Positions 23,055-51,979 of a stretch of 64,000 nt of DNA are shown here, one piece after another (position 1 is the stretch's first letter; each line of letters begins with the position of its first letter). The notes under the pieces were generated by a model. The model made no database searches. It had not been told where the DNA came from and saw only the letters and a program-made list of their open reading frames with translations. The DNA lies in assembly GCF_902652985.1 (NCBI RefSeq), contig NC_047015.1, positions 31,434,001 to 31,498,000 of the forward strand, given 5' to 3'. Made by a program: the position numbers and the translations under genes. Source of the stretch: Pecten maximus (taxonomy: Eukaryota).

Positions 23055-26000
23055 TCACCGTGCGTACTTATCGGTCCATTCCTTAGCAGTTGCGTTGAAT
23101 CGCTTCCGGTCGCCTTTATACACGGAGGCAATTTGTGGTACTAGGGGGTCATCAGCATTAGCTTCGATAAAAAGTGAAAGGACGTCTGATAAAACTGAAA
23201 CAAAACACGGAGAAGATTTTTAACATGTTTAACGAATATTCTTTCAATTAAATGACAGTGGTATAACATTCTTCTTTCGTTATTTTTGTTTTTTTGTTGT
23301 TTTTTTTTTTTTTTTACATATTTTACCTTTATCTATTGTATCTTTCGGTGACCATTTCCTGTCTAAGGTGTTCACACAAATATCACCATTGCTGTTAATG
23401 TTAGGGTGGTATATCTTTGTATGAAATTTGACCTGAAATACCAATTTAATACCTGTACCTATATAACAAGTAATAAAGGTATGAAAACATTGAATTCATG
23501 CACTAGTGTATGCATAACTTATATGAGACATTTTAAATGATTTGATTATTTAGATAGTGGCACGGTTCAGAATAAACATGTTCTGGACGTTCTTTTGAAA
23601 TCGAATACTGAAAATTATGATATTTATTGAATTGCTTGTATTTTCCGTCTCCTCATCCAGATTTCAAATAACATTTCTTTATTGTTCTTTCCTTCGTCGC
23701 TACCTAGTAGGTAATAATTCTTTAGACGTTTAGCATCACTGACGAGTCCTAGAAGAGCGAAACAGCATTTGAATTCATTATTGGGTCTACTTTAACTATC
23801 AATTTGTATTGAAAGTACAAATATCTCGTGTGTCATTTCAAAACGAACTACTCAAGAGAACCGACTTACCTTTGGTGATTTAAATGGATAGTCTGTAGGA
23901 AAGTTCAAATGAAGGACAAATACACCTCCAGCGTATGGCGTATCTTCCTACATATAAAATGAATATCTTTTATGAATGAAAACAAACAAATTGAATGAAT
24001 AAAACATTATTTCCTGATGATTTTGCTTTGTATTCTGTGGTAAAATAGAATGTGAACAACTAATATATAATATCTTTTTTTTAACATTACATAAGCGTCA
24101 TTTGTATAGCAATCAGTCAATTAAAGTCAATTCACGAAACGTGTAGATAATAATGCATATAATGTATATGGAATACTGGCTTCATATTCGTCATTTATAT
24201 TCAATGATAACGTACTAACAAGAAGAATTATACTTACGGGCCCTGTGAGTTTGACTTGCCATTCAAATACTACAATAAAAAATAATTGTATGCATAAATG
24301 TCAAAAAGATGTGTGCATTCTTTCTGTACAGTTATTATAATCCGATACCTTGGTACTTAAATCTTCTCACGGTATGGTAGATATAGAGTAATAGGTACAA
24401 TATTTTTGTTTAACGTTCTTGAGAAAAATGCGTTAAATATTTTCTGTGCAATTAGTTACTGCACCAAAGTATGGTACACTGCACTATATCCGAAATCGAC
24501 ATCGGTATTCGAGTTTCGAAGACAACACGTACACGTTTTACACCTTTGTGTACATATGCTGCCCTGGTTATTTGTCTGATGAAAGTGACAGTGTAAATAC
24601 CATACTAGTCATCGAAACGTCACGTATAAACATTCATTGGTTGTGCAACAAAACATCTTACAAAAACCTTGCTTCCTAGCCTGATGGAAATGTTTAGACA
24701 TATATGCTAATGTTCAATGAAATTCTCATAACACTAAATAAAACAAATTAAAAATGCATATACAATTACATTTGACATAGATAATTCAGTAGTATGTCGA
24801 CAGATACTATTATGTCCCTTGGGGAATGACAACCAATAAGTGATAGATTCATCATAGCGCAATGCTGGTCAAGACACACCAAAACCACAATCATTGAGCT
24901 TGATGAGAAGGGTAAAGAATCCCTTTATAAAAAGCTTCATGGACTGTGCGAAGCTGAGACATTTCGATAAAACTGAACGATCGTTTCAGCATCCTCAATA
25001 ACTACGAGAAAACAGAGATTTAAGACGTATGGAATTACTTCAGAACAGCAAACAACGAAACACCAGCAAATACACTTTGGGGCGAAAAAGAAAACACTAA
25101 CGAATAACGAATGGTTTAGCGCTGACAACTGGAATCTTGTTGATGAGAGACGGACTATCAAATGTAGGTAGAAGATGCCAGATCGGAAGAAATGAAAAAG
25201 AAATTTAGAGAAAGATACAGCGGAAAAGACACGAGAGTAAAGTGACAAAGAACATATCAGAGTAGGTCATCAAATGGACTCTTACTCATATACATGCTTT
25301 GTGGACTTCGAAAAACCAGTGTGTAACTAAATACTATGTGGAAGATTATGAGGCACTATAGAATACAGGGTAAGGTTCATAGGACTAGTTTAATTAGTTT
25401 AATGTCCAGTCAATCCATGGAAGATGTATTACTGAATTGTTTAATATCAAGTAAGGGTTAAAATAGTGATGTCTGGGTTTCTACTACTCCTAGTTATTGA
25501 CCGGATGATGACACAAACACAAGAATATACTGGAACATGACACTAGGACTTGATGACCTCGACTATGCAGACGACATTTTGCATTTTTAATCAGATTAAT
25601 AGATACAGGCAAACATAGATATACTGGACAAATATGAAAATCAACTGGCCTCAGCATCAATGTCTCTAAAACAAAGATTATGTGCATCGATATCATTATC
25701 AACTAGACAATAAGAGCTACTGGAGATGCGATAGAACATGTAAACAACTGCATTTACCTCAGAGGTACAGTCAACATTACAGACAGTACTAACGAAGACA
25801 TCAGAAGGCGACTGGATCATGTACGAACTGTCTACTACAAAATAAGAATAACTCATATATATGGCAAAAGACAAGAACTATGTCATCTCAGTATCAGTTT
25901 ACGGCAGTGAAACATTGGAAATGACAATGATGATAAGACCCTGGAAACATTCTTACACTAATGCCGAAGGACCCTCCTCAAGATGACCAGGTTACATGGA

Positions 26001-26929
26001 TTATATCAAGCATGTCAGAATAGCATTAACATCGACTCCGGAAGGAAAATGCAAGAGAGGAAGAAAGAAGTAAACATGAATAAGTAAAGATGTAATTGAA
26101 ACAGCTAGGTTTTATATCATGGTACCAGACGTAAGTAGAGCAGCAGGGTAAAGACAGATTGGAGTAAACAAGTACATGGTCATATTGTCCACAGGGATAG
26201 GAAAAATCAAGAAGTAATAAGCATATATCTACAACATGACAGAAGACACATGCTTTAGATATGGATTCAAATATTTGACACGCGACTTAATGTGTGTAGT
26301 GAAATATTTGAACTCATCCATTCATAATTACTCACAGTTTTCTCCGACAAGTTCAACTGAACAATTCTTTGGGGGGTCATCCTTTAGAGTCGTTAATTCC
26401 TGAAATAAAGTGTGAGTATGTTTGAATATATCGAAGATAGTTCACACTCAGTGACTTGTATTGTATATAATTCACTTTAAAGAAACCGCGAGAGCCGTCA
26501 CTAATGGACGTGGTTTATAATGAGCTGCACGTTTTTCATATTGTATAATAATGCTGAAATATGAAGCTTTCCTATAGACAGGGAATCAACATTCAACCTT
26601 TTATGATACGAAGCGCGTACAAAGATAGGTATATAATTGGTATATAATTGGTAATTACTTGCTTGATATAAATAATTACAATGCGCTAATGATAATTATC
26701 TTGGTGTTAACAATATACCAGTATTGACCATGTAACACCTCCACAGTATAGGGGCTTTGTCACACCATGAACACTAGTGAATGAATTCAAATCATTTTAA
26801 TCCACACAGTTACTTGATAATCTGTATAATATGAATAGGTATATGTAATAAACTTCTATATTAGGACCTCATCCTACCCTTACTAGTTCTACACTACGCC
26901 ATTACCTTGTTCAATCTTCTCATCGCCAT
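23055..26929 (-). CDS. UBE2D: UBE2D/Ubc4-like ubiquitin-conjugating enzyme, divergent paralog (copy A), 6 exons, 147 aa
   Basis: Exons 26906-26929, 26336-26399, 24238-24269, 23870-23947, 23327-23432, 23055-23194 (24/64/32/78/106/140 nt, all GT-AG, 444 nt). Protein [150 protein letters not shown] motif and catalytic Cys intact; same length and exon phases as UBE2D. The symbol denotes the family, not orthology. Confidence 0.92.
23733..23767 (+). ncRNA. Degenerate minimal type I hammerhead ribozyme motif
   Basis: GCATCA CTGACGA GTCCTAGAAGAGC GAAA CAGC; stem II partly broken, 3' end lost. Confidence 0.5.
24570..24627 (+). ncRNA. Hammerhead-like motif of a second family
   Basis: ATTTGT CTGATGA AAGTGAC...GTCATC GAAACGTC ACGTAT; stem I pairs at 5 of 6 positions, stem II TGAC/GTCA. 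Confidence 0.4.
24900..26200 (+). mobile_element. Degenerate RTE-clade LINE in intron 2 of copy A
   Basis: Frameshifted RT motifs in order: CFVDFEK (~25295), [18 protein letters not shown] (~25550-25580), [17 protein letters not shown](W) (~25900), [10 protein letters not shown] (~26035). Confidence 0.8.
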
Positions 26930-50300: not shown

Positions 50301-51979
50301 GTTATCATATTACCTATTATCTAAAAATAAATACTTATCAACAAAGATTCTACAGGGTACTTAACAGGTAAGTTCTACGGTAAGTCATCTTTGTTACAAA
50401 CTTTTGATCTTAGACCTTCATTAAAAATAAGGTCACTTAAATGTTTAAGGAAATATATTTCTCGCTCAAAATCAGAACGACACATGCACAATGAAAAAAG
50501 TGGTACAAATAAGTTTAAAAATATCAAATGGGTGATTTACAAAATACAAAATATAAGAACCTTTGTATACAATTTGAGAGTTACATCAGTGGAACCAATA
50601 AAAAAAACAGAAATGTGAAAAGCATAAGCTGTTCTGTCCTTCCAGGTCGCGTTGGTGGTAATAAGGTCCTATAGTATTGATACCCGTGAGGCAACGGAGG
50701 CAACTCAGAATAGTTCGAAGGAAATGTAAAAATCTGGAAGTGGAGGTGTAATAGTTCCATCTTCATTTTCTACTGATGATAGATATACACACTTTTTGTT
50801 GTTTTCATTTTTTATTTTTTGTTTCTTGTTTTTTCTCTCTCAAAAATCCAATAATCAAATTCGCCTTTTTCACTGTGCGTTTAGCACGCCTTATCAACAC
50901 TTTAGCAACTGTTTAGGACCTTTATTTATTTCTTTTTTTCAATTTCAACCCTATTGGCCCCCATCAGCATTGCTGAATTCAAGATGGTCCAAACAGCTAT
51001 ATGGTACAGCTTGAATATTTGACATTTGGTGCAAATCATCTTCAAAAGTAATATTTACTAGTGTGACTTTTCGGCGAAGTTAGACTAAAGAACTTTGACG
51101 ATACACAACGGTACTTAGAAACATTATTGATTGTGTACTATAATATGTGTTCCTGCTGTCCTTCCGATCACTTCCGCTCTAACCGAGATAGAACTTTGAC
51201 CGGAATTAATCATCATTCTAACCGATATGTTAAACACAATTAATCGTTTATCAAAGGAATACGGACACTATCAATTTCAATTTATTGGAGCTGGAAATAA
51301 AACTGTATTTCATTTAAACATTTTGCTGATTTTACCGCAAATATGATATTTATCAGTTCAAACAAAGTGAACATATACTCGAAACATTATTTTTATTCTG
51401 ACTTCATAACATTAGAAAATCTCATTTATTAGCAGTAGGTATATCAAAAATGTTTCTATAGACACCTAGAATAATATGTCATGTTACAAATCAAAATAGG
51501 TTTTTTTTAATATTAGGAATTGGTGGACACAACTGGAACAAAAACAAGAAATCTAATACAAGTAGGAGAGTGACACGTCTAATTACAGTAATTTGATAAA
51601 TTGAGTTATTTCCTGTAAGACAGGATATTGTTTTCCTTTTGCATTAGCTGAAACAAAACTAGGAAAATATGGTATGCAATATAAAATATATTTACTCGCT
51701 ATACAAAATAAGTATTCCCCTATAAGATCTCTTACGTTAGCAAATACTTTGTGAGCAGAACTAACATTATTTCCAAACAAAAAGGCCCTTCTCTACTTTA
51801 AATGTTTCCGTGTTCCTTCATTGAAGTGTTTACAATTCGTTTCATTATGACGGTTTACTAGTATAGATCACTAACTACTAATATATATAAATTAATCTGT
51901 TAGCTCCTATCAACAGCATCACAACTAAAATCAACAAGAGAAACGAGTTTACCTTCTTCAGTCGTTTTGTAGATGCCAT
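44314..51979 (-). CDS. UBE2D: UBE2D/Ubc4-like ubiquitin-conjugating enzyme with C-terminal extension (copy D), 6 exons, 170 aa
   Basis: Exons 51953-51979, 50154-50217, 48802-48833, 45409-45486, 45054-45159, 44314-44519 (27/64/32/78/106/206 nt, GT-AG). Protein [170 protein letters not shown]. Confidence 0.9.
45804..45846 (+). ncRNA. Degenerate minimal type I hammerhead ribozyme motif
   Basis: GCACCC CTGACGA GTCC TAGAA GGAC TACC AGCTG TA TGATGC; perfect stem II, GAAA core mutated. Confidence 0.5.
47250..47980 (+). mobile_element. Probable LINE 3' UTR remnant with three internal ~50 nt repeats
   Basis: TTGTTAGGTAGGGGCT(G/A)CCCAATC(A/T)CCTGCTCTCT at ~47349, 47501 and 47670; CR1-like tail GTCACCCTG..AGATAAAAGAATTTATCATTA. 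Family assignment is tentative. Confidence 0.4.

Follow-up and report, generated by a model that had tools for sequence, protein, structure and literature searches.

A 64,000-nucleotide stretch of the scallop Pecten maximus genome (contig NC_047015.1, forward-strand positions 31,434,001 to 31,498,000, i.e., G000:C1:31,434,001-31,498,000) contains a tandem cluster of genes for ubiquitin-conjugating enzymes (E2s) derived from UBE2D. We refer to the whole stretch as the window, and all coordinates of the pieces are window positions. Three genes in the cluster, A, C, and D, are intact. The reading that we favor on balance, drawn from their residues, is one in which C and D are specialized E2s, while A would be charged with ubiquitin yet respond poorly to RING ligases. 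Its parts differ in firmness. We are highly confident that the cluster consists of real, non-housekeeping genes. That C and D are active, specialized E2s is quite probable, judging from what their proteins retain. That A is functional and uncoupled from RING ligases is a tentative proposal, to which we give slightly less than an even chance. The cluster belongs to the known UBE2D family, and an earlier, sequence-only reading of this DNA is partly reinterpreted here.

UBE2D is among the most conserved eukaryotic proteins, and knowledge of its surfaces comes mostly from engineered mutants. In A, nature offers an expressed variant with several positions of RING activation altered together, and C is a close, intact control. 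Together, they make the switching of an E2 between ligase classes directly testable.

Layout and family membership of the cluster

Six UBE2D-derived pieces lie within 29 kb, all on the minus strand: the three intact genes, two pairs of exons 5 and 6 (B and X), and an orphan C-like first exon. Along that strand the order is D, X, C, B, orphan exon, A (Table 1). The open frames encode 147 residues in A, 149 in C, and 170 in D. Their introns are of the GT-AG type, and the internal exons measure 64, 32, 78, and 106 nt; the last exon is 140 nt in A and C and 206 nt in D. The encoded proteins are identical, letter for letter, to database proteins P0001, P0009, and P0126, respectively, whose names are generic; that of D is labeled isoform X1. 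Pairwise, A, C, and D are 53–62% identical. Genome and exon mapping thus bear out two claims of the sequence-only reading: that six co-oriented UBE2D-derived units occupy 29 kb, and that the three intact genes share their internal exon lengths yet differ at many residues. When the genome was searched with the Pfam family, C, and a last exon as queries, no further E2 exons turned up at the locus outside 23055–51979. A literature search whose coverage left out most subscription journals found no publication on UBE2D paralogs of scallops or other bivalves, or on the A-C-D cluster.

Table 1. UBE2D-derived features of the window (window positions)
Feature	Position	Strand	Basis or remark
Gene A, 147-residue UBE2D-derived E2	23055..26929	-	Identical to P0001; contigs spanning all six exons
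A coding exons	26906-26929, 26336-26399, 24238-24269, 23870-23947, 23327-23432, 23055-23194	-	3' untranslated region extends to at least 22500
Orphan copy of C promoter, exon 1, and part of intron 1	29612..30470 (exon 1, 30271-30303)	-	Likeness to C 5' region
Piece B, A-like exons 5 (33506-33611) and 6 (33071-33210)	33071..33611	-	Tree; flanking homology to A, 32713-33795
Gene C, 149-residue UBE2D-derived E2	36796..39095	-	Identical to P0009; orthologs P0048, P0121, P0053
C coding exons	39066-39095, 38352-38415, 37857-37888, 37470-37547, 37176-37281, 36796-36935	-	
Piece X, duplicate of D exons 5 (43140-43242) and 6 (41374-41528)	41374..43242	-	Tail of Ylistrum D model
Gene D, 170-residue UBE2D-derived E2, short C-terminal tail	44314..51979	-	Identical to P0126; ortholog P0127
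D coding exons	51953-51979, 50154-50217, 48802-48833, 45409-45486, 45054-45159, 44314-44519	-	

Several observations place A, C, and D in the UBE2D family. All three match the Pfam UQ_con domain (E = 1.7e-46 for A, 6.8e-53 for C, and 3e-49 for D). They keep the intron positions of UBE2D; UBE2E-like genes on contig C19 have longer, merged exons. With UBE2E-like rows as the outgroup, they fall on the UBE2D side of the tree (support 100/100). The predicted structure of A is a normal UBC fold with four long helices and a sheet (pLDDT 90, with the lowest confidence at residues 81–100), and its closest matches among solved structures are Ubc4/UBE2D proteins. The outgroup rows come from two genes (G000:C19:15.85 Mb and C19:19.65 Mb) that carry an HCN motif, from which we take them to be UBE2E-like.

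The housekeeping UBE2D gene is located 29 Mb away on the same contig, at G000:C1:2.37-2.43 Mb, with the same exon lengths and phases as A, C, and D. Over exons 1–5, it is identical to its Mizuhopecten counterpart at 99 of 101 positions. The identity of the cluster proteins to this housekeeping copy is 58% for A, 67% for C, and 61% for D, and true UBE2D orthologs are reported to be 81–100% identical across eukaryotes (PMC9790923). All three therefore fall short of the >80% identity expected of a housekeeping ortholog, and the earlier claim that none of them is that ortholog stands. In common with UBE2D/Ubc4/Ubc5 enzymes (UbcH5, Drosophila UbcD1), they have a UBC-only fold, Cys85, the HPN motif, Asp117, and the intron positions of this genome's UBE2D; they differ in their tandem arrangement, their low identity to the housekeeping copy, and changes at 13–23 of 91 near-invariant positions. 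Duplicated UBE2D genes, with proposed sub- or neofunctionalization, are described for vertebrate UBE2D1-4 and for UBE2D3 of spiny-rayed fish, with its variable C-terminus (PMC9790923, PMC7306689). However, those paralogs are 95–98% alike or, for fish UBE2D3, variable mainly in the last 20 residues. In the scallop genes, by contrast, loop 7, the crossover helix, and the backside strands are altered as well.

Orthologs, age, and selection

Orthologs of C occur in two further genera of scallops: Argopecten (P0048 and P0121, 87 and 84% identical) and Ylistrum (P0053, 84%). D has one in a single genus, Ylistrum P0127, with 118 of 147 positions identical (80%; tree support 100/100). The Argopecten proteins, which have adjacent accessions, form their own pair of C copies (support 98/91). 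The Ylistrum orthologs of C and D are on contigs of equal size (2,363,085), which suggests that they are adjacent. No cluster member from oyster, mussel, or Mizuhopecten was found among the matches listed (best 120).

The seven full-length cluster proteins form a clade (support 97/86) in a tree leaving out 12 of 39 rows; the rows left out of this tree, and the 15 of 39 left out of another, were fragments, long branches, and redundant canonical rows. A clade of A, C, and D from this species alone is rejected (approximately unbiased test, p-AU = 6.6e-5), meaning that C and D split before these scallop genera. A sister relationship of A and C is neither shown nor rejected (p-AU = 0.217). In the first tree, B is sister to A (support 100/98). 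Outside the scallops, Solemya P0047 is sister to the cluster group, with support of 97/91 in the tree leaving out 12 rows and 96/94 in that leaving out 15. P0047 and C share E41, T43, K70, M110, and R147, and no other protein in a background of 184 has more than one of these residues; the five were chosen after the alignment was seen, and long branches can attract. The background comprises 199 matches less 15, these being cluster genes, their orthologs, and repeated-segment models. On these grounds, the Solemya protein may be an ortholog of the cluster subfamily. Solemya represents an early-branching bivalve group, and the founding duplicate may therefore date back to the origin of the bivalves.

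These results bear on the earlier proposal of a lineage-specific birth-and-death expansion. Turnover is supported by a gain, the Argopecten C pair, and by decayed copies, B and the orphan exon (see below). The expansion is not species-specific, given the orthologs of C and D, the rejected clade, and the position of the Solemya protein; the subfamily is older than that proposal supposed.

Two more divergent UBE2D-type genes with the intron positions of the cluster are located elsewhere on the contig, at C1:59,259,106-59,275,707 (+) and C1:20,427,351-20,429,800 (+); their first exons were not found. The gene at 59.3 Mb has HIN in place of HPN and His at position 117. It falls in the cluster clade in the tree leaving out 15 rows, and was pulled to the outgroup in the first tree. 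The gene at 20.4 Mb has Asn at position 117 and a very long branch, and is unplaced. A further E2-like domain, on the minus strand at L056:4790-5724 (G000:C11:22.95 Mb), has Gly replacing the catalytic Cys and presumably resembles Morgue.

Over exons 1–5, the orthologs of C and D differ at 12–18 of 101 positions, compared with 2 of 101 for the housekeeping pair, although the species pairs are different. Changes in A, C, and D shun 91 near-invariant positions (Fisher p of 1e-5 or less for all three): changed positions are 23/91 conserved versus 35/56 variable in A (p = 1e-5), 13/91 versus 31/56 in C, and 23/91 versus 36/56 in D. A two-ratio codon model gives omega, the ratio of nonsynonymous to synonymous rates, as 0.52 for A, B, and their stem and 0.07 elsewhere (likelihood-ratio statistic 25.5). 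A free-ratio model was dropped, being unidentifiable on saturated branches, and the two-ratio result was used alone. Residues unique to A outnumber those unique to C by 24 to 9 with the housekeeping protein as the outgroup (p = 0.014) and by 21 to 11 with D as the outgroup (p = 0.11). C and D are under purifying selection, and the fast lineage is A/B only. The sequence-only reading had described the cluster as rapidly diverging; for C and D this is not supported in the sense of relaxed or positive selection, omega being about 0.07 outside A/B.

Expression of A and predicted ligase preferences

Assembled contigs of four sequencing runs from four studies were placed on 22500–30800; such contigs carry no levels or tissues. 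In two of the four runs, X5 (recorded as RNA) and X9 (presumed to be RNA), a single contig contains all six A exons and a long 3' untranslated region. Joints among exons 2–6 occur in all four. The skipped lengths of 506, 2066, 290, and 437 nt equal the modeled introns. Two coding alleles are seen, one silent and one I78V, with no stop or frameshift. The spliced transcripts expected if A is a gene, as the sequence-only reading held, are thus confirmed by full-length contigs and by the exon 2–6 joints. In run X1, a contig passes from exon 2 into intron 1 (26336–26650), with no exon-1 joint listed; this may be a retained intron, DNA, or another start site. The orphan exon was ruled out as the first exon of A, since P0001 and the contigs both give 26906–26929, and no joint from the orphan exon to A exon 2 occurs in the four runs. 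Coverage of the orphan region, at low depth and in run X3 alone, is not interpretable, and the run shares for the B-C stretch (0.12–0.43 in 21 of 24 rows) were not counted as evidence of expression.

Expectations for the proteins come from human enzymes. The closed state of UbcH5B with the cIAP1 RING involves contacts at D42, K101, L104, S108, D112, I88, N77, D87, and N114, and the I88A substitution is reported to impair RING-driven ubiquitin discharge (PMC6349121). E2 loops 4 and 7 bind ubiquitin ligases (E3s), the gateway Asp is described as required for transfer to lysine, and UBE2L3 as active with HECT or RBR ligases only (PMC4822130). K128 has been tied to recognition of the substrate lysine (PMC9790923).

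Cys85, HPN, the gateway Asp117, Phe62, Trp93, and Ser22 are kept in A, C, and D; the first three are also kept in the orthologs of C and D, but B has C85Y, and X has HRH and a deleted loop. Because A, C, and D keep Cys85, HPN, and Asp117, charging by the ubiquitin-activating enzyme (E1) is likely for all three, which would descend from an early duplicate of the housekeeping UBE2D/Ubc4 gene, copied at the DNA level. Their ligase-facing residues vary. The nine closed-state residues are all kept in C (9/9), mostly in D (7/9), and in part in A (5/9); Ylistrum C has 9/9, and both Argopecten C copies have G42. The loop 7 motif is SPA in C and its three orthologs, SAA in D (SAG in Ylistrum D), and SPK in A.

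With its SPA loop and complete closed-state set, C would work with RING ligases. Its K128E change, found in all four C-type proteins and in 0/184 background proteins, would shift the choice of substrate or ligase. D lacks Lys101 and Lys128, and these losses, together with the SAA loop, would narrow its range of partners. A carries D87N, I88T, L104S, and D112E at closed-state sites, as well as A96K, L97D, and S105D, and each of its residues N87, T88, K96, D97, and S104 is found in 0/184 background proteins. The ancestral residues I88, A96, and L104 persist in B, which places the corresponding changes in A after the A/B split. Since four of nine closed-state residues and loop 7 (A96K, L97D) are changed, poor activation by RING ligases is predicted: A would load ubiquitin, respond poorly to RING ligases, and either pass its ubiquitin on mainly to ligases of the cysteine-relay type (HECT, RBR) or retain it and act as a competitor. 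From these residues alone, we propose a functional analogy to UBE2L3 (UbcH7), the cysteine-only E2 for HECT and RBR ligases, with A charged yet unproductive with RING ligases. UBE2L3, however, is a separate subfamily, and A keeps the gateway Asp. The UBE2L3 gene of this genome is, we presume, that at G000:C8:32.33 Mb.

An alternative, which we consider unlikely though it deserves to be taken seriously, is that A, though transcribed, is dispensable, evolves under relaxed selection, and is on the path to pseudogene status, with its odd residues reflecting damage; C and D alone would then matter. Several findings that weigh against a specialized A fit this alternative. First, omega for A/B is high, and a value of 1 is not clearly rejected (p = 0.051). 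Second, after their split, A and the Cys-less B changed about equally, with 4 versus 6 and 5 versus 6 unique residues at conserved sites for the two outgroups, a pattern expected under relaxed selection. Third, no ortholog of A was found among the matches listed (best 120). In addition, the confidence of the structure model is lowest at the very segment, residues 81–100, noted above. Conversely, a dispensable A is harder to reconcile with a frame and splice sites that are whole across six exons, with splicing in all four runs and no disabling allele; its changes shun conserved positions overall, and Cys85, HPN, Asp117, Phe62, and Trp93 are kept. Other points count against our preferred reading more generally. 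Saturation of synonymous sites relative to the housekeeping gene makes the omega of 0.07 rough; the trees were built from 147 columns, their branches are long, and two of three bootstrap runs were unsettled; the mechanism is read wholly from residues by comparison with human enzymes; the six bases altered in A96K and L97D are contiguous, and a single mutational event may account for both changes; and loop 7 is reported to bind HECT domains also, so the changes in A could weaken those partnerships too (PMC4822130).

Duplicated exons, remnants, and possible roles

The orphan region is 77% identical to the C 5' region, and a genome search found only these two places. Its exon 1 reads ATT at the start codon, and a later in-frame ATG yields three codons only. 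In B, the catalytic Cys reads Tyr, while the frame and splice sites are intact, with no stop or indel. Non-coding distances are 0.17–0.22 between the orphan region and C, and 0.15–0.27 between the flanks of B and A. From these equal distances and the order C-B-orphan-A, we infer a single duplication of a C-A cassette, of which B and the orphan exon look like leftovers. The C-A pair would have been duplicated once more in this lineage, and the middle copies would have shed complementary halves; loss of the 5' half from the first A copy and of the 3' part from the second C copy would leave the order C, B, orphan exon, A. A 141-nt fragment occurs both at 25857–25997, in A intron 2, and at 33789–33928, at the end of the B-A homology (94% identical); by eye, it may be a retroelement remnant, possibly marking the deletion of the 5' half of B.

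X appears to have had a different fate. Its exon 5 has HRH in place of HPN, and its exon 6 has a 14-residue deletion that removes the Asp117 loop. The tail of the Ylistrum D model P0127 shares 22 of 33 residues with X exon 6, and the 14-residue deletion is present there too. X is 1.07 kb behind D with matching phases, and frames joining D exons 1–4 to X exons 5–6, or D exons 1–5 to X exon 6, are open. This conservation and spacing, with the isoform X1 label of D, make it likely that X is a kept alternative 3' end of D rather than a dead gene; it would have arisen by duplication of exons 5 and 6 within D. The sequence-only reading had counted three partial units; the pieces are all present, but at least one of them, X, is conserved in another genus. 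A search of 1.84 billion representative sequences with X exon 6 gave three matches, the two inspected being unrelated repetitive proteins; the library collapses E2s at 50%, so this carries little weight.

B might likewise be a used alternative 3' end, in this case of C, with C exons 1–4 joined to B giving a 149-residue, Cys-less decoy E2. Its frame is open and its splice sites are intact, and simulated neutral decay preserves both in only 0.1–2% of runs with indels, or 11–22% without. The housekeeping gene, moreover, carries five putative alternative last exons. We nevertheless regard this use of B as improbable, because its A-like flanks and its pairing in age with the orphan exon are explained by the cassette duplication, omega between A and B is 0.69 (interval 0.39–1.30), C has its own poly(A)-like signals ahead of B, and no ortholog was seen. 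B and X can also be compared with ubiquitin E2 variants (UEVs), i.e., catalytically dead UBC domains: B similarly has Cys85Tyr, and X loses HPN and the Asp117 loop. However, both are exon pairs rather than whole genes, and use of B is putative.

For the housekeeping gene itself (G000:C1:2,373,224-2,430,349, loci L032-L038, minus strand), there are two candidate first exons, and the five tandem last-exon copies, each of 140 nt, are 69–91% identical in protein and in phase with their own stops. Two such last exons in a row are also present in the Mizuhopecten P0004 and Mytilus P0006 models, so the predicted alternative C-terminal ends of housekeeping UBE2D may be old in bivalves. A literature search found no paper on alternative last exons of this gene.

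A broader interpretation can be put forward as speculation that we think more apt to be wrong than right in its entirety. It envisages an old second UBE2D lineage of bivalves, expanded in scallops into E2s with varied ligase-facing surfaces, including a RING-uncoupled A and decoy isoforms made from duplicated 3' exons (D-X, perhaps C-B), and a housekeeping gene diversified in parallel by its two first and five last exons. If true, it would mean that ubiquitin signaling is tuned from the E2 side in animals with very large E3 families.

Two biological roles have to be weighed. One is an arms race, with the cluster evolving in step with expanded immune ligases, for example the inhibitor of apoptosis proteins (IAPs). 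Bivalves are reported to have 54–169 IAPs, many induced by stress or infection (PMC13159474), a human IAP RING uses UBE2D (PMC6349121), and copy number turns over between scallop genera. Partner ligases thus exist, but none of this links them to the cluster. Moreover, C and D are conserved rather than fast, A is altered at residues that an IAP RING needs, and a Pfam scan of 79 of the 119 frames of 70 residues or more, covering 20 kb on each side, found no E3 domain. We consider this role quite unlikely. The other is restriction to the germline. Testis-biased duplicates of conserved genes occur in other animals, and copies of a highly conserved gene whose rate of evolution is several times that of the parent fit the pattern. 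A probe named "E2-17 kDa (UBE2D1)" was reported as higher in spawned oocytes of this species (PMC5333834), although it cannot be assigned to a gene. Against this, A is present in all four runs from four studies, with tissues not given, and a UBE2C-like E2 is the only one named in the main text on a testis library from scallop (PMC3774672). Germline restriction is a credible idea that we nonetheless doubt.

The cluster's neighbor is a fucosyltransferase gene at 56800–58950 on the minus strand (Glyco_transf_10, E = 2.8e-35). Head to head with it, a gene running from 62100 onward on the plus strand appears to reach Sec23/Sec24 exons beyond the window (L065-L066); in humans, FUT11 is next to SEC24C. 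Tandem arrays occur at 7648–8657 (period 21 nt), 12154–12891 (32 nt), 31779–32480 (159 nt, between B and the orphan exon), and 41533–42477 (48 nt, inside the intron of X), and copies of a short interspersed repeat are located at 35225–35433, 54921–55139, and 63178–63366.

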